Positions 24,642-58,080 are shown, counted from the stretch's first letter. The stretch: 64,000 nucleotides of DNA from a virus (IMGVR_UViG_2795385619_000008:14166-78165), one strand, 5' to 3'. Made by a program: numbers and translations. Notes: a model not told the origin generated them from the sequence alone.

Positions 24642-25445
24642 TTAGAGTTGGCCGGTGCGTTTCCAGAAGCTGTAGTGCAGGCCAGTCAGAAAGTCATTCA
24701 GTTCGTCATGGTCGACGTGATCGGGGAGAATGGATCGCTCGATATTGACTTCGAGATTTTGGGTGTAAAGATCCAGCCAGTCCGTAACCCTCTTCAGGGG
24801 GTACCGGCCCCTTCGCACATCCCGTAGCCACTCCACCTCAAGTGGGCGCATAGGGATGACGATGTCATGGTCCCGCATTAGTTCCGTGCCCTGAATCGCC
24901 AGGCGTAGAGCGTGGTAGGCCATCTTCGTGTCGAAACCGAACTGCTCCACAAGCTCCCGGCGATTCTTGTGTGTCGAGACACCCTTTTCGCCGAGCATCC
25001 TGGCGCGCTGGGCTTTCAGATACCCGTGGAACCGCCATCCAGCGTCCTTCGAGAGGAACAGACTCCGGGCCCTCAAGAGTTGGGTACCCTCCAACGTCTG
25101 CTGGTAAATCTTTCCCTTCGGCGCGAACAGTGGGAGCAACACGGTTGGATTTCCCTGCGCTGCAAGGCGGGCCCACTTACTTAAGGCGTAGGTGGTGTGG
25201 TCCGTATCGCCGTGCTGACTGCGCACACCGTCAGGTATGCGTGTTCCGTCGACGTGCCAACGATCAGCGTACTGCTCGAATTTCTCAAGCCCCAGAACAC
25301 ATTCCGGTGGGGGAATGCATATACCCATCTCGTCATGGTCGTCGGTGCCCTCCATGGTCACACCGTGCAGACCGGATCCAACCTCGGTGAGGAGGATGAG
25401 GCCCTTTGACGCGATCTCCTTGTGGCGGGGGGAGTGGTGGCTCAC
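24642..25445 (-). CDS. Pol-beta superfamily nucleotidyltransferase.
   Basis: GS-x10-DxD motif (GSGLHGVTMEGTDDHDE). GTG start overlapping the TGA of the upstream gene. Confidence 0.55.
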   Translation of the reverse strand: MSHHSPRHKEIASKGLILLTEVGSGLHGVTMEGTDDHDEMGICIPPPECVLGLEKFEQYADRWHVDGTRIPDGVRSQHGDTDHTTYALSKWARLAAQGNPTVLLPLFAPKGKIYQQTLEGTQLLRARSLFLSKDAGWRFHGYLKAQRARMLGEKGVSTHKNRRELVEQFGFDTKMAYHALRLAIQGTELMRDHDIVIPMRPLEVEWLRDVRRGRYPLKRVTDWLDLYTQNLEVNIERSILPDHVDHDELNDFLTGLHYSFWKRTGQL

Positions 25446-28017: not shown

Positions 28018-28875
28018 ATGCTGTTCACCCCTGACGGTGGACGTCGGGTCGCCTACTCGCGATGCTCGACGCTGGCTAAGGATCTCGACAAGCCCGGAGA
28101 TGGGTTGTTCGCCTGGCACCAGGCCAATGCCATGTTCGGTCTCGCGCAGAATCCCCAGCTTCTGAACCGCGTCAAGGCGATTATCGCCAAGGGCGGCTCC
28201 TGGGATTCGAGCAAGGGCGAGATCAAAGAGGTCATCTCACAGGCCGAGACTATCGGCGGGGCGATGAACAAGTCCTCCCGGGGAACTTCCATCCACGATT
28301 TCACGGGTGTTCTGGAAGAGGGGAACCTCGACTGGTCACTGGTCGATGAGGATATGAAGCCCATCCTGGATGGGTACCACGAATTCATCGCATCCCTTCC
28401 CGGGATGAACTTCCTGGCGCGTGAGGTCTTCCTGCAGGCGAATGACCGCATCGAGCTGCCGGATGGCCGGATCGCCACGTTGCGCGCTGCCGGATCCGCC
28501 GATCGCATTGTTGAGTGGAATGGCACTCGCTACATGGTCGACATCAAGACTGGTAAGGACGACCAGTACCGGATGGGTGTCTGCGCTCAGCTAGCGCTCT
28601 ACGTACTTGGCAAGCTCTACCAGGATTCCGCTGTCCATCAGGACATTCCGTGGGCCGACTTCTGGCCGAACGCCGATGGCACCGCTGAGTTCGCTGACCA
28701 TGAGTGTGATACCGAGACCGCTCTGATGTTCCATTGCCCGCAGACACCCGACTCGCGTGGCCGCTGGAAGTGGGGGATCTACGAGGTTCCCCTTGCGCGT
28801 GGCCGAGACATTGTTCTTGGTGGCCAGTGGGCCCGCAAGCTTCGTGTCGTTCCCGAGCTGAAGAGGGTTGCCTGA
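28018..28875 (+). CDS. PD-(D/E)XK exonuclease (Cas4/RecB-like), the partner of Erf.
   Basis: D...D-I-K motif (YMVDIKTGK). Confidence 0.55.
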   Translation: MLFTPDGGRRVAYSRCSTLAKDLDKPGDGLFAWHQANAMFGLAQNPQLLNRVKAIIAKGGSWDSSKGEIKEVISQAETIGGAMNKSSRGTSIHDFTGVLEEGNLDWSLVDEDMKPILDGYHEFIASLPGMNFLAREVFLQANDRIELPDGRIATLRAAGSADRIVEWNGTRYMVDIKTGKDDQYRMGVCAQLALYVLGKLYQDSAVHQDIPWADFWPNADGTAEFADHECDTETALMFHCPQTPDSRGRWKWGIYEVPLARGRDIVLGGQWARKLRVVPELKRVA

Positions 28876-29405
28876 TGTCTGCAGAACCATCCGATCCAGC
28901 AGAGCTCAGTCTCCATGGCGAGATCGATGACAAGGTCGCCCGTAAGACCCTGGGCCATCTTCGTGACATCGATATCAATACACCTGGGCGTCCGATCGAT
29001 CTGATCATCAACTCACCTGGTGGGTCTATGGAGCACGGGGACGCCATCTACGACGAGCTCGTGCGGATGTCTATTGCGGGTGGTGGAGGACACCACGTCA
29101 CCACGCGTGTACGCGGTCGTGCTGCATCTGCCGCTTCCTTGATCCTCCAGGCTGGTGATAAGCGCCTTGGTGGACGAATGAGCTACATCTACATGCACGA
29201 GCCGTTGTCTACGTTCCATGACCAGACGATGGCCCAGGTGCGCAATGAGCTCGAGTTCTGCGAGAAGTGGGTGGAGCGATACATCGACGCCCATGACCGC
29301 TGCAATATCTCATACGCCGAATTCCGTGAACGGATTCGGGACAAAGAGTGGTACCTGGCGATGGATGAGGCTGTGGCGCTGGGGATTGTGGACGGTATCG
29401 GATGA
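28875..29405 (+). CDS. clpP: ClpP-like serine protease.
   Basis: INSPGGS, GRAASAAS and MHEP motifs match the ClpP Ser-His region. Confidence 0.65.
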   Translation: MSAEPSDPAELSLHGEIDDKVARKTLGHLRDIDINTPGRPIDLIINSPGGSMEHGDAIYDELVRMSIAGGGGHHVTTRVRGRAASAASLILQAGDKRLGGRMSYIYMHEPLSTFHDQTMAQVRNELEFCEKWVERYIDAHDRCNISYAEFRERIRDKEWYLAMDEAVALGIVDGIG

Positions 29406-45518: not shown

Positions 45519-45836
45519 TTGCCGACTTCATCGAAGAACGGCCCGCGCTCTCTCGGTCGCACTGGAGTCAAGTTCGACAAGGCGAAAGCCCGAGTACTAC
45601 GGGCGAACCAGATCTGCGACGAGTGCCATGAAATCATCGACCTAACCCTTCCATGGCCCGATCCTAAGAGCGCGACCGTTGACCATGTTATCCCCGTGAA
45701 AGATCTCGCGTGGGACGACCCGTTGTGCTACGACGTTTCGAATCTCGTTCCCTGCCATCTGGTTTGCAACCAGCGCCGAGGCGGGAAGGCCAAGAAGAAG
45801 GTCAAGCACCCCACCTCGCGTAACTGGCGAGAATAG
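45519..45836 (+). CDS. HNH endonuclease.
   Basis: CDECH...DHVIPV...CHLVCNQRRG. Confidence 0.6.
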   Translation: MPTSSKNGPRSLGRTGVKFDKAKARVLRANQICDECHEIIDLTLPWPDPKSATVDHVIPVKDLAWDDPLCYDVSNLVPCHLVCNQRRGGKAKKKVKHPTSRNWRE

Positions 45837-46093: not shown

Positions 46094-46160
46094 GCACTGA
46101 CTTCTCGGCGTTTGGGCCCCGGTTCCTCAGTGGATCGGGGCCCATTTTTATTCGCCAGAG

Positions 46161-46172
46161 GTTCATGTGGGT
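46161..46172 (+). promoter_or_regulatory. Motif copy GGTTCATGTGGGTAG at the entrance to the RNA island.
   Basis: Exact. Confidence 0.5.
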
Positions 46173-46227
46173 AGGTCGTAAACTGAGTTCAGCAAGAGGG
46201 GCTACCAGGGCCTGAAAATCTGGAAAT

Positions 46228-46298
46228 TCGGATGTGGTCCAGTGGCAGGACAGCGGCTTCCAAACCCGCCAACGGGAGTTCGATTCTCTCCATCCGGG
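46228..46298 (+). tRNA. tRNA-Trp (CCA).
   Basis: Hand-folded cloverleaf. Acceptor TCGGATG/CATCCGG, T-loop TTCGATT, anticodon loop TTCCAAA. Confidence 0.6.
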
Positions 46299-46353
46299 CA
46301 ATGCCTTTGTGTGGCATGACATTTGAAAACTCCATAGAGATAGTAGTTTCAAT

Positions 46354-46699
46354 GGGGCTGACAGGCATTCGATTGCGTGTCAACTTACTGAGAAGCGTGC
46401 CGGGAAGCAACGCCCGCAACAGTGCAACCTTGATAAGCGCAAACGCTCATCAGTCCGACTACGTCCTAGCGGCGTAGTCCGTTGGGGTACAACGGTTCAC
46501 CCGTTCCTTGTACCAATCCACCGTCGCCAATACGGGGAACCCTCTGGCTCACGCCGTCGCACAGAGGCTAAACGTGCTGCGGCAGAACCCTCGTATCAGG
46601 CTGCCCAGCCAAACCGGAGGTAAACGGTATAACAGGGATACGCACGTAGAAGGCAGTGAAGAGAAGCGCAAGACTGCGGTTCAATTCCGCACAGCTCCA
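46354..46699 (+). ncRNA. ssrA: tmRNA (SsrA) encoding the tag ANAHQSDYVLAA.
   Basis: 5-prime GGGGCTG pairs with 3-prime CAGCTCC-A. T-arm TGCGG-TTCAATT-CCGCA. Tag ORF GCA AAC GCT CAT CAG TCC GAC TAC GTC CTA GCG GCG TAG at 46439-46477. Confidence 0.8.
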
Positions 46700-46985
46700 C
46701 GAGAGGGAGGCCACCGGTTCGATCCTGGTCAGCTGGGGAGCGCCCTGGCTGTAGCTCAGTGGCAGAGCGCCCTCGTTAAACGACGCGTGGCCCCGGCTCG
46801 CATAACCAGAACCAAGTACGAGTAGCGCTCGGAACGGAGCGGTTCTTACGGGGAATGTGGAGAGACATCTCCGCGCGGCCATCGGGATGCCGATGGTCAT
46901 ATGGATGACAGGGTAATCCCGCAGTAGGTTCCGATAAAAAGGATCCGACCTGAGGTGCCGTACCTGGGCCGTGTCGTCCATTAAT

Positions 46986-47056
46986 CAGGCTGTAGTGAAA
47001 CGGGATCATGCCGGTTTTGGGTACCGGTGGTGGAGGTTCAATTCCTCCCAGCTTGA
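46986..47056 (+). tRNA. tRNA-Pro (TGG).
   Basis: Hand fold. Anticodon loop TTTGGGT. Confidence 0.6.
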
Positions 47057-47168
47057 CGAGAAGAGTTGTCGGTATATCTCCACGCGCAGGGAACCGTCCG
47101 TCTGATCGCGAACGATAGACGAAAATTCGCGCGCTACGCCCCCCTAGCGTCAACATGGTGGGCACCAT

Positions 47169-47241
47169 TGGCCTGTAGCTCAATTGGTAGAGCAGCGAGC
47201 TGTTAACTCGCGAGGTGTAGGTTCGACTCCTGCCAAGCCAG
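47169..47241 (+). tRNA. tRNA-Asn (GTT).
   Basis: TAGCTCAATTGGTAGAGC D-arm. Loop CTGTTAA. Confidence 0.65.
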
Positions 47242-47351
47242 CGTTGGAACGTGGTGCAAGCGTAGAGCAGCCAAGCGCGACGGCGAGTGGTGAGCACATC
47301 GGCAGTCGACGGTCGAAGATGCCAGGGAAAAGCTGTTCGTTCCTAACCAAT

Positions 47352-47428
47352 CTCGTCGCGAATAGGCGATCAACGCAGACTGTAAATCTGTTCCTTCGGG
47401 TGTGCAGGTTCGACTCCTGACGGCGAGA
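47352..47428 (+). tRNA. tRNA-Tyr (GTA).
   Basis: Loop CTGTAAA, long variable arm. Confidence 0.55.
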
Positions 47429-47507
47429 CAATGAGACTGGTGTGGAACGAACTGAAGGCTTGCGGCAAGCAGAAACGTTCCCCCGCCCGCAAGGCCAGTC
47501 TCAGCCT

Positions 47508-47580
47508 TGATGATTGGTGTAACCGGCAGCACACGTGGCTCTGAACCACGTAGGTCTTGGTTCGAATCCAGGGTCATCAG
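47508..47580 (+). tRNA. tRNA-Gln (CTG).
   Basis: Loop CTCTGAA. Confidence 0.55.
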
Positions 47581-47662
47581 CTTTTGGGTCAACCGGTAGG
47601 TACCTGCCATGAGTTGACTGTCCGGTGGCTCGCATGCCCTCCGTCACAGAAGCATGCCGCAT

Positions 47663-47747
47663 GGAAGGCTCCGCTGAATGGTCGGCAACCGGCGTCGAAT
47701 ACCGGGGCAGGCAGTGCGTCCTGGGGGTTCGAGTCCTCAGCTTTCCG
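47663..47747 (+). tRNA. tRNA-Ser (CGA).
   Basis: Long variable arm. Loop GTCGAAT. Confidence 0.45.
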
Positions 47748-47829
47748 CTCCTAAAGTCTTCCACCTGCCTGAATGGTGGCTAATCAGGTGTGCTCCAAGA
47801 TCGCGTGGACACGGCAACAGGTGGACCAA

Positions 47830-47913
47830 GGAGAGCGCAACTAGTTAGGTGACTAGGCCCGGTTGCTAACCGGATCGCTGCTCTGCAGTAGGTTTCGAAT
47901 ACCTGCCTCTCCA
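47830..47913 (+). tRNA. tRNA-Ser (GCT).
   Basis: Loop TTGCTAA, long variable arm. Confidence 0.55.
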
Positions 47914-48363
47914 CGCACCCACACGAACTCTGTTGTGGGAGATATAGTTAAGACATTCGGGGCATGGCCCATAAGCCACCGCAAGGTGGTGAAAGGTGGG
48001 GTGACAACCCACCACCCGCAAGGGCAATCCATGCAATCCAATCCTTGAGCAGTCAGTGATGGCTGCCAGGTCGTGAGTCTGCCCGTGACCGACGCCGAAT
48101 GTGGTGAGGTCAGCAGCCCGTATCGTGCGGGTGCTCCGTGGGAGTAATGCAGGGGACAGGACAAGCGGCCTGTGGAACGGAAGGAACTGAGTCCGAGCCT
48201 CGCAAGCAAGGGCGTGTTCCATGATCGATCTCGCGTCGGGCGACGGCTCGCAATGCGGTTGAGAGAGAGTGTAATTAGCCCCGCCAGGCGAAAGCACGAG
48301 AGGCGTGAAGCATTCTGTGCCACAAAAGGGTTCGGAACTTCATGGGGAAGCACGTCTTTGGTC

Positions 48364-48436
48364 AAACATCTAGCTCATTTGGTAGAGCATCTGTCGCATA
48401 AACAGTTGGTAGCCGGTTCAATTCCGGCGATGTATA
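48364..48436 (+). tRNA. tRNA-Met (CAT).
   Basis: TAGCTCATTTGGTAGAGC. Loop CGCATAA. Confidence 0.55.
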
Positions 48437-48729
48437 CAAGCAAAAGTCCTTCCCCTGCCGAGGAGCAAAAGCGCCTTAATCCCAGACCTTCGGGAATCTG
48501 GGCCGCACAATAGTCCCGCAAGGTGAGTGCGGTTTGTAGGCAAGTACTGCAGCAGTGAGACGGCCATCTCATCGCGAAGGGAAAGCCGCAGAGTAGCTTT
48601 CGGCATGACGAGTGGTTCACGGTAACGGACCAGGCGTGAGAACTAGGTCAGGGATGGCCTGGAGAAGCAGCGAATCAATAATGCTGCGAAAGGTTCTCGA
48701 TAGCGGGTGTACTCTCAGCCTCTAACAAT

Positions 48730-48803
48730 CGACTCTTAGCTCAGTTAGGTAAGAGCGACCGGTTGAAGCCCGGTGCGCCCCCGTTCGATTCGGGGAGAGT
48801 CGG
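48730..48803 (+). tRNA. tRNA-Phe (GAA).
   Basis: Perfect acceptor CGACTCT/AGAGTCG. Loop TTGAAGC. Confidence 0.65.
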
Positions 48804-48925
48804 CGTGTAAGGGAAACCAGGTTCCACAGCTACTGGTGAAAAGCTGGGCACTCCACGTAAAAGGTCGCGTTGACTCGCGCGGATACGGTAGGCGATGAAC
48901 TGTCCTACCGGAATGAGTCACTCAT

Positions 48926-49000
48926 AGCGGGTTAGAGAAGTTCGGCCATCTCGCGAGCCTCATAAGCTTGAGACCACCGGTTCAAATCCGGTACCCGCCA
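48926..49000 (+). tRNA. tRNA with anticodon CAT (Met, or Ile-lysidine). The 1:72 pair is mismatched.
   Basis: Loop CTCATAA. D-stem GAGA/TCTC. Confidence 0.55.
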
Positions 49001-49064
49001 CAGGGTCCGCTCGCCAGCAAGTCTGGTCCTGAAACCCACGGAGACGGTTAAAGAGTCGGGCAAT

Positions 49065-49139
49065 CCCGTTGTTGGGCAATGGAGCGCCCACCGCCCTACG
49101 AAGGCGCAACGCATGCAGGTTCGAATCCTGTCAACGGGT
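49065..49139 (+). tRNA. tRNA-Arg (ACG).
   Basis: Acceptor CCCGTTG/CAACGGG. Loop CTACGAA. Confidence 0.6.
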
Positions 49140-49203
49140 CTGAGCGCTGTCGGTACAAAGCCCGAACGAACAGAGATGCCATGCTGCTCTGGCCAGCGCC
49201 ATA

Positions 49204-49274
49204 CCTTGTGTAGCTCAATGGCAGAGCTCCTCGCTGTGACCGAGGTTATCGCGGTTCAACTCCGCGCATAGGGA
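49204..49274 (+). tRNA. tRNA-His (GTG).
   Basis: Loop CTGTGAC. Confidence 0.55.
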
Positions 49275-49297
49275 CGTACAGACACTGAAAGGCCAAG

Positions 49298-49462
49298 ATG
49301 ACTGACAAGCTGCGCACGGGTATCGCCCATATCGACATCGTCAAGGCGGTGAACGATCTGATCGATCGCATGGATGCTCTTGAGGGCTTCCATTACGCGG
49401 TGGATGAGAAGCCGGTGGCCAAGAAGGCTCCCGCAAAGAAGGTAGCCCCACCTGCAGAGTAG
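49298..49462 (+). CDS. Small basic protein (54 aa) embedded in the tRNA array.
   Basis: ATG preceded by GAAAGG. MTDKLRTGIAHIDIVKAV...KKAPAKKVAPPAE. Confidence 0.35.
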   Translation: MTDKLRTGIAHIDIVKAVNDLIDRMDALEGFHYAVDEKPVAKKAPAKKVAPPAE

Positions 49463-49471
49463 GTGGCATAA

Positions 49472-49543
49472 GGCGAAGTGAGTGAGTGGCTAGCTGGCAG
49501 GCTGCAACCCTGACCCACACCGGTTCGAATCCGGTCTTCGTCT
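49472..49543 (+). tRNA. tRNA-Cys (GCA).
   Basis: Loop CTGCAAC. Confidence 0.55.
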
Positions 49544-49613
49544 CCGACGCGCTCGATGGGGCTGGTGAGCCATCGTAAAGCCGACGCGTTAGACCATGAA
49601 ATATCGGCACCAT

Positions 49614-49688
49614 GCTCCGGTAGCCCAATTTGGCAGAGGCGACAGGCTTAGACCCTGGAGGTTGTGGGTTCGAATCCCTCTCGGAGTA
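49614..49688 (+). tRNA. tRNA with anticodon TAG (a Leu anticodon) but a short class-I variable arm.
   Basis: Loop CTTAGAC. Variable AGGTT. Discriminator A. Confidence 0.45.
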
Positions 49689-49757
49689 CTCGACGGGTGG
49701 CCCCCGTGAAAGGGCCTGCAGTACTTCGGTAAAGCTGCGTCATCAAACACCGAGCCT

Positions 49758-49832
49758 GGTCGGCTAGGCAAACCTGGCAAAGCCGCCGAGCTCAAACCTC
49801 GGTGTCTGCGAGTTCGATCCTCGCGCCGACTA
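49758..49832 (+). tRNA. tRNA with anticodon CAA (a Leu anticodon) but a short class-I variable arm.
   Basis: Loop CTCAAAC. Variable TGTCT. Discriminator A. Confidence 0.45.
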
Positions 49833-49833
49833 C

Positions 49834-50046
49834 GTGAACAAGTATCGCCTGACAGCTGCGGGGGTCTCATATCTTGCCTGGGGCAAGGAGCTCACCCCGG
49901 AAGGTGCTAGGGCCCTGGTTGAAGCAGAGTGCGGCGTTAGGGCCAGTGACTGTCAGCGATACCACCCAGAGCGCTCACGTGGGCGCGATGGATACAGGAA
50001 GGCGTACCCGCATGTGTGGGCAGCGTTTCCCGCGATCACAAGTTAA
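49834..50046 (+). CDS. Possible small protein gene within the tRNA array.
   Basis: GTG-start ORF of 70 aa between tRNAs. Confidence 0.25.
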   Translation: MNKYRLTAAGVSYLAWGKELTPEGARALVEAECGVRASDCQRYHPERSRGRDGYRKAYPHVWAAFPAITS

Positions 50047-50047
50047 T

Positions 50048-50118
50048 GGGCGTTGGTGAAACGGAATCACCCTAGACTTTTAATCTATGAGTTGAGGGTT
50101 CAAATCCCTTGCGCCCTA
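50048..50118 (+). tRNA. tRNA-Lys (TTT), imperfect acceptor.
   Basis: Loop CTTTTAA. Confidence 0.45.
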
Positions 50119-50119
50119 C

Positions 50120-50191
50120 GGGAGTATAGTTAAGCGGTTATAACTCTTGGCTCTTACCCATGAATCCCAGGTTCGATCCCTGGTGCTCCCA
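50120..50191 (+). tRNA. tRNA-Lys (CTT).
   Basis: Loop CTCTTAC. D-stem GTTA/TAAC. Confidence 0.55.
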
Positions 50192-50192
50192 C

Positions 50193-50264
50193 TAGCTCGT
50201 CGTCCAATGGTTAGGACACCGCTCTGATAAGGCGGAAACCAGTGTTCAACTCACTGCGGGCTTA
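50193..50264 (+). tRNA. tRNA-Ile (GAT).
   Basis: Loop CTGATAA. Confidence 0.5.
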
Positions 50265-50271
50265 CCAACTT

Positions 50272-50342
50272 ACGACTGTAACTCGGACAGACCAACGGCC
50301 TCCTAAGCCGCGTGGAAGCAGGTTCAACTCCTGTCGGTCGTG
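50272..50342 (+). tRNA. tRNA-Arg (CCT).
   Basis: Loop CTCCTAA. Confidence 0.5.
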
Positions 50343-50390
50343 CGCCAGTATGCATTTCGTACCCCTCGGGCCTACGTTCTGCATACTCAT

Positions 50391-50464
50391 GCGAGTGTGA
50401 TGTTTAACGGTTAGCATCTCTGTCTTCCAAACAGATCGTGCCAGTTCGAATCTGGTCACTCGTT
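50391..50464 (+). tRNA. tRNA-Gly (TCC).
   Basis: Loop CTTCCAA. Confidence 0.55.
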
Positions 50465-50590
50465 CGACGTCCTGGGATGGACGACCCTACGGTGGAGACT
50501 TCGGTTGTCGCCGGAAGCTTGTGCGCGGATAGAGCATCCGCCAGGGACCTCTCGCTGCAGCATTGGCACCCTCAACCAAAAGCTCGATAT

Positions 50591-50658
50591 GCCTGGTTAG
50601 TCTGGGACGAAAGCTGGCTTACATCCAGCCAAGCGGTGTTCGATTCACCGACTGGGTA
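50591..50658 (+). tRNA. tRNA-Val (TAC), short D-arm.
   Basis: Loop CTTACAT. Confidence 0.45.
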
Positions 50659-50663
50659 CGCAG

Positions 50664-50737
50664 GCCTCATTAGCTCATCCGGCTAGAGCACTTCCTTAGT
50701 AACGAAGAGGCGCGGGGTTCGAGACCTCGATGAGGCC
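50664..50737 (+). tRNA. tRNA-Thr (AGT).
   Basis: Perfect acceptor GCCTCAT/ATGAGGC. Loop TTAGTAA. Confidence 0.55.
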
Positions 50738-50976
50738 CGACGTTCAGTCTTTCTGCATGTTCAGCTTTGTTGAACAGCAGGGGGATTGAACACTTGGGGG
50801 CGCATGTTCCAAGGTGGCGACCGATCCTTGCAAGATTGGTGTGGTCGCGTTCAATTCGCACCGTCTCCACGGGAGTTTTGGCCAAGCAGCTCCAGGGTTT
50901 GATTCCCAGAAAGTTGGCTCAGGTTGTTCGTACCTGCCCCAGTGGCCTCGAAAACCGCTGGGGGTAAACGTCCTAA

Positions 50977-51049
50977 GCACGTGTAGCTCAATCGGGAGAG
51001 CGCCACCCTGTCAAGGTGGAGGCAGCGGGATCAAAACCCGCCACGGGCG
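50977..51049 (+). tRNA. tRNA-Asp (GTC) with a non-canonical T-loop ATCAAAA.
   Basis: Loop CTGTCAA. Confidence 0.55.
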
Positions 51050-51050
51050 C

Positions 51051-51389
51051 GTGAGTAGAGAACTAGTGCTGTCAGTGACCCTGAAGGATTGTCGTGTAGA
51101 CACATTCCGATCAGGTGGCAAGGGTGGCCAGAACCAGAACAAGCGCGAGACGGGTGTGCGGATTACGCACGAGCCATCTGGTGCGATTGGTGAGTCGCGC
51201 GAGGAGCGTAGTCAGCTTCAGAACAAGCAGGCTGCGTTTCGTCGAATGGCGGGCTCACCGAAGTTCCAGCTCTGGGTGAAGCGTCAAGTCGGTCGTGATG
51301 ACCTGCAGAAGGCCCAGGTGGAGCGCGATATGTGGCCGGTGAACCTCAAGACCGAGGTTCGCGAGTCCGGCAAATGGGTTGAGCAGTAA
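51051..51389 (+). CDS. GGQ-motif peptidyl-tRNA hydrolase domain protein (stand-alone class-I release-factor catalytic domain, ArfB/PrfH-like).
   Basis: DCRVDTFRSGGKGGQNQNKRETGVRITHEPSGAIGESREERSQLQNKQ matches release-factor domain 3. GTG start 2 nt after tRNA-Asp. Confidence 0.65.
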   Translation: MSRELVLSVTLKDCRVDTFRSGGKGGQNQNKRETGVRITHEPSGAIGESREERSQLQNKQAAFRRMAGSPKFQLWVKRQVGRDDLQKAQVERDMWPVNLKTEVRESGKWVEQ

Positions 51390-51430
51390 CCCGTTCGATG
51401 TTCGGTATTGACCGCACAGCGAACACTCAA

Positions 51431-51501
51431 GGTCCATTGGTGTAGTGAGAGCACACCACCCTCTCAAGGTGTTGGTGCGGGTTTGATTCCCGCATGGACT
51501 A
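51431..51501 (+). tRNA. tRNA-Glu (CTC).
   Basis: Loop CTCTCAA. T-loop TTTGATT. Confidence 0.55.
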
Positions 51502-51505
51502 CTCG

Positions 51506-51548
51506 GAAGGCCCTCAGCGCAAGCTGGGGGCCTTTTTCGTACCCACAT
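51506..51548 (+). terminator. Rho-independent terminator closing the RNA island.
   Basis: Hairpin CCCTCAGC-GCAA-GCTGGGGG followed by CCTTTTTCGT. Confidence 0.55.
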
Positions 51549-51552
51549 GAAC
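51541..51552 (-). promoter_or_regulatory. Motif copy ACCCACATGAAC. Its ATG opens an 11-codon leader (MNPKALNTIGT) whose TGA overlaps the ATG at 51579.
   Basis: Exact 12-mer. Confidence 0.45.
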
Positions 51553-51578
51553 CCCAAAGCTCTCAATACCATTGGTAC

Positions 51579-51692
51579 ATGAAGGAATTCAGGAAGCACC
51601 TCTGCATCGCGATCTTCGCTCTCACTGTCATTGACGCCGTGCTGTCGGTGCTCGAGCTGATTGATGCCATCAAGCAGGGACGTGACGCATGA
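51579..51692 (+). CDS. Small membrane protein of 37 aa.
   Basis: Hydrophobic ORF. Confidence 0.3.
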   Translation: MKEFRKHLCIAIFALTVIDAVLSVLELIDAIKQGRDA

Positions 51693-51988
51693 GCGCCAAT
51701 CCCTATGACTTCGAGAAGATTCCGACCGTCACGTCAGAGATGATCCGATTCGCACGGGACATCATGTGGCGTGGTGTTTCGTCTGGCCCATCTAGTCCCG
51801 GTACGAGCCTGATCAATGAGGTCGTGCTCTGGCTCGAAGAGCGTGCTGCGAGTTACCAGGCAGTTGAAGAGCAGGAAGCTGTCGAGAGGGCCTTCATCGA
51901 CGCCGTGGAAGAAGAGGTCGGACAGGGCTGGACGTATCCAGGCGCGATCCGGAAGGTTCTTTCTACCCACAAACTGGAGAAGTTGTGA
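51689..51988 (+). CDS. Hypothetical protein.
   Basis: ATGA overlap. Confidence 0.4.
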   Translation: MSANPYDFEKIPTVTSEMIRFARDIMWRGVSSGPSSPGTSLINEVVLWLEERAASYQAVEEQEAVERAFIDAVEEEVGQGWTYPGAIRKVLSTHKLEKL

Positions 51989-52082
51989 AGCGCCTGGACG
52001 ATTGGGCCTGGTACGTGTCACTCGCCATGGGTGGGTTCGTGATCATCCTGGTCCTGCTCTTCCCGGTTCTGATGGAGCTGAG

Positions 52083-52619
52083 GTGGGGGCATTGAGCGAG
52101 GCTGACCGCGTGAGTCGCCGTGTGCTTGTCACTGGTAGCCGCGACTGGCCGGACCCGAAGCCGGTTATCTACGCCCTCAACAGCCAGTGGCTCAAGGCGC
52201 ACAAGAAGGGCGAGAAGCTCGTTGTTGTGCAAGGGGAGTGTCCCAAGGGTGCTGATCTCTTCGCTGCCGAGTGGGCCCAGTTCCGCGAGGATCGCGGTTG
52301 CCGCGTCAAGAATGAGTCGCATCCCGCAGATTGGGATCGCGACTGTGACTACCACTGCACCCATCCACCTCGGTGGAAGTGGGGTAAGCCGTACTGTCCG
52401 CTCGCTGGACATCTACGCAACCAGGCGATGGTGGACCTTGGCGCTGACATCTGCATTGCATTCCCACTGAAGGACTCTCGGGGTACTTGGGACTGCATGA
52501 AGCGCGCTAAGAAGGCTGGAATCTCCGTCATCAACTTCGGGTACGACGGGCCCCTGTGCGCTCCCTGGATCGACTATCACATTGATCCACATACAGGTCC
52601 GTGTGCACGTGCCCGCTGA
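52083..52619 (+). CDS. Rossmann-fold SLOG/DUF2493-like (DprA/Smf-related) protein with a C-terminal Cys/His cluster.
   Basis: RVLVTGSRDW...VVVQGECPKGADLFAAEWA. GTG start. Confidence 0.45.
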   Translation: MGALSEADRVSRRVLVTGSRDWPDPKPVIYALNSQWLKAHKKGEKLVVVQGECPKGADLFAAEWAQFREDRGCRVKNESHPADWDRDCDYHCTHPPRWKWGKPYCPLAGHLRNQAMVDLGADICIAFPLKDSRGTWDCMKRAKKAGISVINFGYDGPLCAPWIDYHIDPHTGPCARAR

Positions 52620-52738
52620 TCCGTTCTGGTTTGAGAAGTACCCCGCAATTCCCGGCAAGGGTTACCGCGACTCGGCATGCGACTACGACCCAGTGACTGT
52701 CTATGACGGAGCTCAGATCATGGGAGAGGTGAACAGCG

Positions 52739-53092
52739 ATGAGTGAACTGAAGCAAATGATTGTCATGCGTAAGGATCTCGGCATGCGTGCCGGGAAGAT
52801 GGTTTCACAAGGTGCTCACGCCTCTCTGGGTGCCGTTCTCGAGTACCGCGATGACCCACGGGTGGTTGAGTGGCTCGCCGGTTCGTTCACGAAGGTCTGT
52901 GTGCGGGTGGAGAGCGAAGACGCACTGATTGACCTCTGGGGCAAGGCAATTAAAGCCAACCTCCCAAACGCGCTGATTACGGATAACGGTAAGACCGAAT
53001 TCCATGGCATCTTGACCACTACGTGCTGCGCTATCGGCCCCGCAACGGCTGAAGAGCTTGCACCGATCACGGGGGCGTTGAAGCTTCTATGA
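52739..53092 (+). CDS. pth2: Peptidyl-tRNA hydrolase, Pth2 family.
   Basis: MIVMRKDLGMRAGKMVSQGAHAS signature, 117 aa. Confidence 0.7.
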   Translation: MSELKQMIVMRKDLGMRAGKMVSQGAHASLGAVLEYRDDPRVVEWLAGSFTKVCVRVESEDALIDLWGKAIKANLPNALITDNGKTEFHGILTTTCCAIGPATAEELAPITGALKLL

Positions 53093-56697: not shown

Positions 56698-58080
56698 CTA
56701 GTTGGACTGACGCCAGTGGACGGTGACGTTGTGTCCAGCGGAGAGCTTGTGCACGCCCTTACCCTTAGTGCCTAGCGAGTTGACTTCGAGCTTCTCGATA
56801 ACCTGCTGTATCACACTGCGCTGCCGGTCAATTGGGAGGCTAGACCATGTCTCCCTGAGATTTGATGCGCCAACGAGACCATCTAATACGTTGGCCTCCA
56901 ACGCCTTCTGGATATTATCGTTAGCCATCTCCAGCTTCTGCTGAAGACTATCAGTTGCGATCTTGACCTGCGCAGCGGTGAGATTACCCTCTGCGTAGTC
57001 GACGGCCAGCTGGTCGATGCGGGCCCTGAGCGCGTTGGCTTCCTCATTGAGTGCGGGTGTGTTCGATGTGGTGACCTGAGTCCACGTGGCCTGGCTCTCG
57101 AGATGACGTAGGACAAGCTCCTCTATCCATCCGTCCAGTGCTTCCTGGCGACGCTGAACTCCTGAGCAGCCGAACGCACCACCCTTGCAGCGATACACGC
57201 CGTGCCCACCATCCGTGGCCGCAGTGAGTGGGCCCCCGCATTTCCCGCAGCGGGCGATCACTGACAGCAGGTGCTTAGGGTCGCGGCGACCCGTGTAGCT
57301 GGATCTTGACGGGTTGGTAATGATCGCATGGACAGACCGCCAGGTGTTCTCGTCGACAATGGCAGGCCAATTCCCAAACCCCACGATCTCGCCATGTAGT
57401 GCCCGCAGACCCGCATTGCGCGGGTTCTTAATGAGCCTGGAGAGGTTGGAGGTATCCCACCTACTTCCGCGCTTAGTGGTGACACCCTGCTTGTTCCACT
57501 GCTGGGCAATGCCGTAGAGGGTGCGCCCGGAGAGAATGTCGCGGTATGCATCACGGATGAGGTCAGCCTCTTCCGGCACGAGTGCAGGGTTCTCATGGTC
57601 GCCCGAGTAGCCAAACTGTGGTGGCCCCCAGCCCTTACCGGACTGCGCCAGCTGGAGGTGGGCTCGCTTCTGTCTTACTGACTTGCGTTCGATCTCAGCT
57701 CGTGCCACAGCGCCCTTGATTCGGGCGACCAACCGGCCTTGGTCGGTTCCCAAATCGGTATCGCCACCAACGGTCGCTAGCGCTATGCCCATCTTGTCGG
57801 CCAGTGTGATGAAGTCTTCGAGCTCACGCGGCTGCCGGTGGAGTCTGTCGAGATCCCACGTCACCACGGCGTCGATCTGGCCGTCACGAATGTCTTGCAG
57901 CATCGCCTGGTACTGGGGGCGCACGCCTTTGGTGGCCGACGTGTCGTTGTCGACGTACTTGACGATGTCATTCCAGCCCTTGCGTTCACACAGGGCCGCA
58001 CAGTCCTCTTCCTGGCGTGCAACGGCTAGTCCTTCGCCAGTCCGGTCGAGCGATTGGCGCAGATACATCCCCGTCCTCAT
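56698..58080 (-). CDS. int: Large serine recombinase (integrase). The preferred start is the Met at 58080.
   Basis: N-terminal catalytic domain MYLRQSLDRTGEG. Zn-ribbon and coiled-coil C-terminus. 461 aa. Confidence 0.8.
   Translation of the reverse strand: MRTGMYLRQSLDRTGEGLAVARQEEDCAALCERKGWNDIVKYVDNDTSATKGVRPQYQAMLQDIRDGQIDAVVTWDLDRLHRQPRELEDFITLADKMGIALATVGGDTDLGTDQGRLVARIKGAVARAEIERKSVRQKRAHLQLAQSGKGWGPPQFGYSGDHENPALVPEEADLIRDAYRDILSGRTLYGIAQQWNKQGVTTKRGSRWDTSNLSRLIKNPRNAGLRALHGEIVGFGNWPAIVDENTWRSVHAIITNPSRSSYTGRRDPKHLLSVIARCGKCGGPLTAATDGGHGVYRCKGGAFGCSGVQRRQEALDGWIEELVLRHLESQATWTQVTTSNTPALNEEANALRARIDQLAVDYAEGNLTAAQVKIATDSLQQKLEMANDNIQKALEANVLDGLVGASNLRETWSSLPIDRQRSVIQQVIEKLEVNSLGTKGKGVHKLSAGHNVTVHWRQSN

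Follow-up and report, generated by a model that had tools for sequence, protein, structure and literature searches.

Dedrick et al. (2021) reported 21 tRNAs, a transfer-messenger RNA (tmRNA) and a release factor in the Mycobacterium abscessus prophage prophiGD54-2, placed this region with the expected early lytic genes and read it as 'translational reprogramming'. Within Mycobacterium tRNA arrays, Morgado and Vicente (2018) described genes for RF-1, for a peptidyl-tRNA hydrolase (Pth) and for tmRNA together with a structured RNA of ~430 nucleotides (nt), and proposed that additional tRNAs call for additional rescue factors. The structured RNA was later recognised as GOLLD with a nested (pseudo-)tRNA (Morgado 2020; Behra 2019), and a cryo-electron microscopy structure of the GOLLD nanocage led to the suggestion that the linker tRNAs are displayed or enclosed. 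The tmRNAs of cluster C phages have been catalogued since at least 2014. A counter-defence role has been proposed for the tRNAs of cluster C1 mycobacteriophages against VapC-type tRNases (PMC10264068), and jumbo-phage tRNAs, RtcB and PTH2 have been proposed as an 'RNA repair/ribosome rescue' counter-defence (PMC7824862); for phage tRNAs, PTH2 and RtcB the idea was thus already published in 2021-2023. Here we analyse an island of this kind, with a tRNA array, a tmRNA, a truncated release factor (mini release factor, mini-RF) and a Pth2-type peptidyl-tRNA hydrolase, at positions 46,161 to 53,092 of a viral sequence of 64,000 nt (IMGVR_UViG_2795385619_000008:14166-78165; this whole stretch is hereafter called the window).

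The island is already known through annotation and published discussion, and the window is a further MabI-like member without RtcB. With a probability of roughly 55%, we read the island as supporting translation in a MabI / cluster-M-like temperate phage, its tRNAs, tmRNA, mini-RF and Pth2 keeping ribosomes and tRNAs cycling. A previous sequence-only reading of the window had described three co-localised rescue activities, namely the tmRNA, a stand-alone GGQ protein of the ArfB/PrfH type and Pth2. All elements named in it were recovered at or close to the given positions, with scores well beyond chance.

Comparison with MabI prophages and other described islands

By sequence comparison, the window is a MabI / cluster-M-like temperate Mycobacterium (pro)phage, with an identity of ~83-86% to M. 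abscessus prophages. It is colinear with the M. abscessus cluster MabI prophages prophi86-1 (MW584160), prophiGD54-2 and prophiT49-2 at 82-88% identity and 27-85% coverage, depending on segment and prophage, and shares with the named members the order capsid, tape measure, lysis, replication, array, integrase. Cluster M mycobacteriophages and MabI prophages are described as similar in genome organisation. In the three prophages (genes 111-143 of prophi86-1), the island is ordered as in the window, with an HNH endonuclease, tRNAs, tmRNA, the GOLLD position, RF-1, tRNA-Glu, small membrane open reading frames (ORFs), a SLOG protein ('DprA-like') and Pth2, and its parts carry the same annotations, already in GenBank. 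Nucleotide identity is 86-88% over the alignable 61-73% of the island, and the RF-1, Pth2 and SLOG proteins of prophi86-1 are 93%, 85% and 87% identical to those of the window, respectively. The window differs in lacking an RtcB-like ligase, in carrying an orphan ORF of 99 amino acids (aa) and in the tRNA nested in GOLLD. Its serine integrase (56707-58080, minus strand) is only 47% identical to that of prophi86-1, against ~85% for flanking genes, which suggests that the integration module was swapped and that the attachment site is probably different.

In the Mycobacterium tRNA array units of Morgado and Vicente (2018), rescue genes and GOLLD co-occur on chromosomes, plasmids and phages, and HNH endonucleases flank them. 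The papers on these units (Morgado and Vicente 2018; Morgado 2020; Behra 2019) are gene catalogues, without analysis of RF-1 architecture or expression. Cluster C1 phages (Bxz1 gp200, McGee gp209) and cluster M phages (e.g. Nanosmite) have genomes with 21-36 tRNAs, and cluster C also has tmRNA and Pth2. Cluster C1 phages are lytic myoviruses, whereas the phage of the window is of the temperate siphovirus type.

The mini release factor

51051-51389, plus strand, mini release factor of 112 aa with GGQ domain 3, helix α7 and C-terminal β-hairpin (Pfam, NCBIfam, PHROG, AlphaFold2 (AF2) and Foldseek)

The RF-1 domain expected here from the sequence-only reading was recovered with Pfam (PF00472, 66.2 bits against a threshold of 35), with the GGQ motif at residues 25-27; the match spans only profile positions 6-66 of 116. 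PHROG 3122 ('RF-1 domain peptide chain release factor') aligns along the entire protein (206.6 bits, E = 2.7e-61, residues 1-112 against profile positions 19-130 of 136). The NCBIfam models of prfB (release factor 2, RF2; 68 bits against a cut-off of 370) and prfA (release factor 1, RF1; 63 and 61 bits against 400) match through domain 3, at release factor (RF) positions ~209-282. A profile of the mini-RF family aligns to residues 237-329 of Escherichia coli RF2 and 298-388 of mtRF1, a stretch that we take to run from domain 3 through helix α7 and the switch-loop region into the first domain-4 strand. An alignment of 36 homologues, whose identity to the window protein is 59-92%, has 22 invariant and 22 near-invariant columns, a sign of strong constraint; G25, G26 and Q27 are invariant, as are W75 and W109 in the C-terminal third, where P96 is nearly so. 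The AF2 model (predicted local distance difference test score, pLDDT, of 86) consists of a β-strand at 15-21, the GGQ loop, strands at 32-40 and 45-49, two helices (55-68, 70-93) and a hairpin (102-111). Foldseek ranked ribosome-bound RF2/RF1 first for this model (probability 1.00, template-modelling score TM(query) ~0.5), followed by PrfH, mtRF-R and ICT1.

Profile matches and model together show a class-I release factor reduced to the catalytic arm, without an ArfB-type basic tail and predicted not to read stop codons. RF1/RF2 domain 3, as in the mini-RF, comprises the GGQ loop, flanking β-strands, helix α7 and the beginning of a domain-4 strand, and gave the best sequence and fold matches. 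The mini-RF differs from these factors in having neither domain 1 nor the domain 2/4 superdomain, and thus no PxT or SPF tripeptide; canonical RF1/RF2 membership was ruled out by these missing domains, by the length of 112 aa and by the scores of 68/370 and 63/400 bits.

The assignment to an 'ArfB/PrfH type' in the sequence-only reading did not hold, as both models failed; RF2/RF1 domain 3 is closest, then PrfH, and ArfB fits much more poorly. PrfH is likewise a shortened release factor without domain 1; it acts on damaged or stalled ribosomes and is linked to RtcB, which lies nearby in the sister prophages. It keeps a codon-recognition-like domain (~200 aa), in contrast to the 112 aa of the mini-RF. 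PrfH membership was ruled out by that missing domain, by the score (TIGR03072, 52.6 against 166.65 bits, profile positions 104-162 of 200) and by the lack of RtcB in the window. ArfB, ICT1 and mtRF-R (C12orf65) resemble the mini-RF as small stand-alone GGQ proteins that release peptides without codon reading. ArfB and ICT1 rely on a basic C-terminal tail that lies in the empty mRNA channel and that the mini-RF lacks (net charge of its C-terminal 45 residues about +2, as read from the sequence), and mtRF-R needs MTRES1 and split large subunits, whereas no conserved partner of the mini-RF was found. ArfB-type identity was ruled out by the score (NF006718, 24.3 against 100 bits, covering only residues 7-40 with the GGQ loop), the absent basic C-terminal tail and the modelled RF-type α7 and hairpin. 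Phage versions go unmentioned in the review by Burroughs and Aravind on the evolution of release factors, and our literature search found no paper on mini-RF biochemistry.

Start codons flush with tRNA ends

The GTG start codon of the mini-RF gene directly abuts the last base of the tRNA-Asp call (51050/51051), in the order acceptor stem, N73, C, GTG, and thus there is no space for a Shine-Dalgarno sequence. A small ORF in the same array begins likewise, with GTG directly 3' of the end of tRNA-Leu (CAA) (49833/49834). Mini-RF starts are flush with a tRNA end in four separate lineages, in which the tRNA is Asp, Leu-CAA, Ser-GCT or Thr-TGT. We counted the starts (ATG or GTG) of ORFs of at least 50 codons relative to the tRNA ends in 427 distinct tRNA contexts from mini-RF loci. 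At offset 0 there were 25 starts, against 3.0 on average and 8 at most at the other offsets between -6 and +30, which served as background (simple Poisson P ~4e-15, with cases that are not all independent; ~18 are lineage-independent by estimate). Mycobacteria translate leaderless mRNAs efficiently. The positions of these ORFs suggest that those flush with tRNA ends are released as leaderless mRNAs by host tRNA 3' processing. A literature search on flush or leaderless starts after tRNAs found nothing relevant in an incomplete library, which is weak evidence for novelty; as a side result of this analysis, the arrangement may be new.

Gene content and boundaries of the array unit

Two terminator-like hairpins bracket a 5.4-kb unit with the tRNAs, the tmRNA, GOLLD, two small ORFs and the GGQ gene, which therefore look like one transcription unit. 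The downstream hairpin was missed by a simple terminator scan, spotted by reading the sequence and confirmed by folding, and none of 200 shuffles was equally stable. The GGQ gene had been placed directly after the last tRNAs; its position is between tRNA-Asp and tRNA-Glu, within the array. The other features of the unit are given below (tRNAs from ARAGORN at default settings and Rfam unless stated otherwise; MFE, minimum free energy).

46113-46144, plus strand, terminator-like hairpin that closes the upstream operon (13-bp stem, then TTTTT; -26.4 kcal/mol, z = -4.4)
46228-46299, plus strand, tRNA-Trp (CCA) (Rfam 52.7 bits)
46354-46702, plus strand, tmRNA (46354-46700 in ARAGORN; Rfam RF00023), tag ANAHQSDYVLAA followed by a stop
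46986-47057, plus strand, tRNA-Pro (TGG)
47169-47242, plus strand, tRNA-Asn (GTT)
47352-47429, plus strand, low-scoring tRNA-Tyr (GTA) (ARAGORN at 90% threshold only; a default-setting tRNA-Tyr occurs in the relatives L005-L007 and L013)
47508-47581, plus strand, tRNA-Gln (CTG)
47663-47748, plus strand, low-scoring long-arm tRNA-Ser (CGA) (ARAGORN at 90% threshold; Rfam tRNA-Sec model, 23.8 bits)
47830-47914, plus strand, low-scoring long-arm tRNA-Ser (GCT) (ARAGORN at 90% threshold; cloverleaf-like MFE structure, z = -3.1)
48298-48721, plus strand, GOLLD RNA (Rfam RF02032, 191.6 bits against 150, model positions 1-416)
48364-48437, plus strand, tRNA (anticodon CAT) nested in the GOLLD linker (ARAGORN; Rfam 47.6 bits)
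48730-48804, plus strand, tRNA-Phe
48926-49001, plus strand, tRNA-Met
49065-49140, plus strand, tRNA-Arg (ACG)
49204-49275, plus strand, tRNA-His
49298-49462, plus strand, small conserved ORF (54 aa, found at 7 loci, no Pfam match; 33 aa align to prophi86-1 gene 122 at 97% identity)
49472-49545, plus strand, tRNA-Cys
49614-49689, plus strand, tRNA-Leu (TAG)
49758-49833, plus strand, tRNA-Leu (CAA)
49834-50046, plus strand, small ORF (70 aa) with GTG flush with the tRNA-Leu end (34% identical to prophi86-1 gene 126; also flush in L005 and L008)
50047-50267, plus strand, tRNA-Lys (TTT), tRNA-Lys (CTT) and tRNA-Ile (GAT), head-to-tail
50272-50342, plus strand, borderline tRNA-like element with anticodon loop CCU (Arg) (Rfam 28.9 bits against a threshold of 29; cloverleaf-like, z = -0.4)
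50391-50465, plus strand, tRNA-Gly (TCC)
50591-50659, plus strand, tRNA-Val (TAC) (ARAGORN only)
50664-50738, plus strand, tRNA-Thr (AGT)
50796-50870, plus strand, low-scoring tRNA-Ala (TGC) (ARAGORN at 90% threshold; a default-setting tRNA-Ala occurs in the relatives L006 and L008)
50977-51050, plus strand, tRNA-Asp (GTC)
51431-51502, plus strand, tRNA-Glu (CTC), the final tRNA
51505-51537, plus strand, terminator-like hairpin at the end of the array unit (14-bp stem with GCAA loop, followed by a T-run; -27.4 kcal/mol, z = -5.0)

ARAGORN called 20 tRNAs at 46228-51502 with default settings, all on the plus strand, and Rfam recovered 17 (whole-window scan) or 19 (local scan) at its gathering score. 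Four more lie in gaps of the array at the 90% threshold of ARAGORN (Tyr-GTA, Ser-CGA, Ser-GCT and Ala-TGC). Together, the 24 tRNAs cover all 20 amino acids, and the four low-scoring ones are precisely the isotypes lacking in the firm set. The previous count of about 24 tRNAs thus agrees with 20 firm and 4-5 low-scoring ones. The tRNA-Ser (CGA) element corresponds to a 91% identical stretch in many cluster M phages, annotated as tRNA-Ser in phage Bricole. With standard wobble, the phage tRNAs could read 69% of the codons in the window; if U34 wobbles four ways, the share is 91%. From this we infer a largely self-sufficient decoding set; the window has 58% G+C and a G+C content at third codon positions (GC3) of 0.66.

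The tmRNA was confirmed with the covariance model, which it matches over the full length (101.7 bits against a threshold of 47, model positions 1-374), and by the ARAGORN tag. Sister prophages encode the tags AASAQSDYALAA and ANAHQSDYALAA. At the loci L022-L024, on unrelated viral contigs, the mini-RF stands beside 28-33 tRNAs and tmRNAs of their own, with the tag EAFVPARSYALVA and a 26-residue tag ending in DSVLV; these distinct tags indicate that tRNA-rich phages acquired tmRNA in several lineages. Just upstream of the tmRNA of the window, a weak promoter-like site (9/12 matches) lies at 46316-46344. GOLLD did not figure in the sequence-only reading. Its flanks are nearly identical between the window and prophi86-1, and the linker tRNA differs, with the anticodon CAT in the window, an annotated Gln-TTG in prophi86-1 and '???' or His in other relatives.

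Distribution of the mini release factor and its neighbours

In a translated search, the mini-RF was found in 265 phage records, 210 of which cover at least 80% of the protein; 208 of these are mycobacteriophages, mostly of cluster C, with Bxz1 gp200 as an early example. The protein database holds 1,411 relatives at E <= 0.001, some of which may be cellular release factors; the lengths of the top 120 all fall between 97 and 142 aa. No entry of the protein collection is identical in sequence to the mini-RF of the window. A profile scan of contigs with the mini-RF alignment was discarded, as its patterns also fit prfA/prfB and the loci listed (at least 80) were all ordinary RF genes, from Chlorobi, cyanobacteria and others. 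In the cluster M2 phage Reindeer (MT658803, 69072-69134), only 21 residues inside a 'hypothetical protein' match the mini-RF, at its C-terminal end and with 95% identity; they may be a remnant of a lost mini-RF gene.

We surveyed 80 viral contigs encoding the mini-RF by scanning 10 kb on either side of it. At least one tRNA was present at 44 loci, at least five at 27 and at least ten at 21, and at 17 loci a tRNA lies no more than 300 nt from the mini-RF. A tmRNA was found at nine loci, as was a SLOG protein, RtcB at 4-5 and Pth2 at six, all of them close MabI relatives. Divergent SLOG proteins near the mini-RF occur in five unrelated viral contigs (L018, L031, L041, L049 and L080). Whether the GGQ gene always travels with the tRNA/tmRNA island, as asked in the sequence-only reading, is answered in the negative by these counts (tRNA in 44/80, tmRNA in 9/80). 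As for the three co-localised activities, tmRNA, GGQ domain and Pth2 are all strongly recognised in the window and the label is reasonable, but with Pth2 at 6/80 and tmRNA at 9/80 loci they do not form a conserved module: the three-activity 'toolkit' is a lineage-specific assembly.

Pth2 and neighbouring genes

Pth2 lies in the next unit downstream, with the SLOG protein, two tiny hydrophobic ORFs and the orphan ORF. The Pfam check on Pth2 bore out its earlier identification, with a match over the whole profile. TIGR00283 also scored above its cut-off (91.6 against 82 bits), NF003314 below (103.2 against 126 bits). The protein is 85% identical to prophi86-1 gene 143, annotated as 'peptidyl tRNA hydrolase'.

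45519-45836, plus strand, HNH endonuclease just upstream of the array (Pfam HNH, 25.2 bits; 94% identical to prophi86-1 gene 109)
51579-51692, plus strand, 37-aa hydrophobic ORF, annotated as a 'membrane protein' in relatives (matches prophi86-1 gene 138 in part)
51689-51988, plus strand, 99-aa orphan ORF, an insertion relative to prophi86-1 between the two small membrane ORFs (sequence comparison)
51985-52095, plus strand, 36-aa ORF, 'membrane protein' (86% identical to prophi86-1 gene 139; followed by RtcB in relatives, not in the window)
52110-52619, plus strand, SLOG-fold YAcAr-family protein, 'DprA-like' in relatives (PF10686, 43.5 bits against 28.2; PHROG 289, 'GTP-binding domain'; 87% identical to gene 141)
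52582-52746, plus strand, small ORF homologous to prophi86-1 gene 142 (97.5% over 40 aa; start uncertain, probably ~52603-52612)
52739-53092, plus strand, Pth2-type peptidyl-tRNA hydrolase (117 aa; PF01981, 104.7 bits against 23, profile positions 1-115 of 115)
24645-25445, minus strand, RlaP-family protein outside the island, 'nucleotidyltransferase' in relatives (PF10127, 106.2 bits; 85% identical to prophi86-1 gene 65)
28875-29405, plus strand, ClpP-like protease of the early region, distant from the island (Pfam CLP_protease PF00574, 76.2 bits; 85% identical to prophi86-1 gene 72)

The orphan ORF matched nothing in Pfam, NCBIfam or PHROGs, and a tblastn search of 50,697 phage records was likewise negative. 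RtcB has no counterpart anywhere in the window and is cleanly absent at 52095-52110, in comparison with L001 (10112-11344). Sister prophages carry it between the GGQ gene and Pth2, as gene 140 in prophi86-1 and also in prophiGD54-2, and several IMG/VR relatives have it too; RtcB is a variable part of the island. The RlaP family is associated with RNA repair, and its member in the window possibly has a function related to the island; the phage thus keeps one RNA-repair-associated gene despite the absence of RtcB. The ClpP homologue noted previously was likewise recovered.

Possible roles of the island

If the island supports phage translation, the array unit would be transcribed as a single precursor during lytic growth and cut by host tRNA-processing enzymes, yielding tRNAs, tmRNA, GOLLD and leaderless mRNAs. 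The mini-RF mRNA is most likely leaderless and freed by 3' processing of tRNA-Asp, because its start is flush with this tRNA and a Shine-Dalgarno sequence is lacking. By sequence and model, the mini-RF retains the catalytic GGQ loop, helix α7 and a hairpin resembling the switch loop, and the domains that read stop codons are gone. It most likely acts in the A site of stalled 70S ribosomes, where it would hydrolyse peptidyl-tRNA whatever the codon. The tmRNA, with host SmpB, would resolve non-stop complexes, and their products would be tagged with the ...YVLAA degron; Pth2 would release tRNAs from dropped-off peptidyl-tRNA or N-acyl-aminoacyl-tRNA. These rescue activities and the phage tRNA pool may together sustain the cycling of ribosomes and tRNAs during a disturbance of the host pool, with host tRNases, phage-induced RNA turnover and codon mismatch as candidate causes.

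Several points weigh against this scheme. No ribosome anchor can be recognised in the mini-RF, which lacks domains 2/4 as well as a basic tail, and 4-5 of the tRNAs are non-canonical, sub-threshold predictions. SmpB is not among the annotations of the closest phages (the window ORFs were not scanned for it), so the tmRNA must, we assume, rely on host SmpB. At 36 of the 80 loci, no tRNA lies within 10 kb of the mini-RF, and Pth2, tmRNA and RtcB are near it in few lineages only. In cluster C phages, the gene is located between DnaE and RecA, 8-9 kb from the nearest tRNA. The loci without nearby tRNA and the cluster C placement imply that the parts are not an obligate functional unit; the link of the mini-RF to tRNA-rich phages is real, not obligate. 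Clustering of the ORFs within 4 kb on either side of the gene at 81 loci revealed no conserved protein partner: the clusters present at more than 15 loci were only overlapping-frame artefacts of the GGQ gene, followed by RecA-like (10 loci), SLOG (9) and HNH (9) proteins. Finally, expression, processing and activity of the island are all inferred.

An alternative, put forward in the sequence-only reading, is a dedicated counter-defence, in which the island defeats host systems that cleave or modify tRNAs, for instance VapC or MazF tRNases, anticodon nucleases of the PrrC type, retron effectors or GNAT acetyltransferases; phage tRNAs resistant to nucleases would take the place of the host pool, and mini-RF and Pth2 would clear ribosomes jammed with damaged peptidyl-tRNA. 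Such a role is plausible and was previously proposed, having been argued in print for C1 tRNAs (PMC10264068) and for jumbo-phage tRNAs, RtcB and PTH2 (PMC7824862). It would fit the RtcB ligase between mini-RF and Pth2 in sister prophages, the RlaP-family gene of the window and a tRNA set that covers all 20 amino acids, including Trp and Met, for which there is no codon choice. Pth also hydrolyses N-acetyl-aminoacyl-tRNA and can counteract TacT-type toxins. We nevertheless hold this role to be possible rather than probable, as RtcB is missing from the phage of the window, the mini-RF frequently occurs without tRNAs, Pth2 or RtcB, and none of the island genes is known to counter a defence system. 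Mycobacterial hosts are more GC-rich than the window (58% G+C, GC3 0.66), and many of the phage anticodons are of U34 or A34 types, reading A/U-ending codons. The tRNAs might then serve codon-usage adaptation only, for codons favoured by a lower-GC phage in a high-GC host, with the rescue genes as accessory passengers for the extra tRNA load, as Morgado and Vicente suggested; additional rescue factors are tied to additional tRNAs by Morgado 2018. This is doubtful, given that the set includes tRNAs for the commonest G/C-ending phage codons (Gln-CTG, Glu-CTC, Lys-CTT) and for single-codon amino acids, and that it leaves unexplained the strong conservation of the mini-RF in phages without nearby tRNAs.

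Two other explanations concern the mini-RF itself. It could be a phage PrfH that releases peptides at ribosomes with ribotoxin-cut 16S rRNA, which RtcB then reseals, a mechanism reportedly established for PrfH and RtcB in a published study. Sequence and fold comparisons both list PrfH as a match (TIGR03072, 52.6 bits; PDB 9mor and 7sa4), and RtcB is encoded three genes 3' of the mini-RF in prophi86-1 and prophiGD54-2. We consider it improbable, however: the score is far under the cut-off of 166.65, the domain recognising the damaged decoding centre is missing (112 against ~200 aa), and RtcB is absent from the window, near the mini-RF in only 4-5 of 80 loci and, in the relatives, located beyond the terminator in the Pth2 operon. 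As a truncated cellular-type release factor without a domain that would limit its action to stop codons or empty mRNA channels, the mini-RF could also abort host translation by unregulated codon-independent release (host shut-off) or be an inactive remnant of a captured prfA/prfB. Yet a remnant would not keep 22 invariant columns down to 59% identity, a dedicated full-length PHROG family and ~210 mycobacteriophage copies; a harmful factor would hit the same ribosomes that the phage needs; and the location within a tRNA operon argues for a translation-supporting role, so that we regard both variants as very unlikely.

A bolder form of the view that the island supports translation, which we advance only tentatively and judge rather unlikely as a whole, would make the mini-RF a distinct class of rescue factor: a releaser independent of codon and mRNA length, made from a leaderless mRNA of the tRNA-array precursor, that frees ribosomes at 'hungry' sense codons on intact mRNA, with the flush arrangement as a general, undescribed expression route in actinophage arrays. 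Stalls of this kind would not be resolvable by tmRNA, ArfA or ArfB and are the expected product of tRNA-depleting defences. The residual interest of the island lies in the mechanism of a widespread truncated release factor and in the flush tRNA-to-start-codon arrangement. The mini-RF family is large, with members in ~210 sequenced mycobacteriophages, and among its hosts is M. abscessus, against which phage therapy is directed. If its release activity is true, this would have implications for the carriage of tRNAs by phages and for the rescue of ribosomes that stall on intact mRNA.

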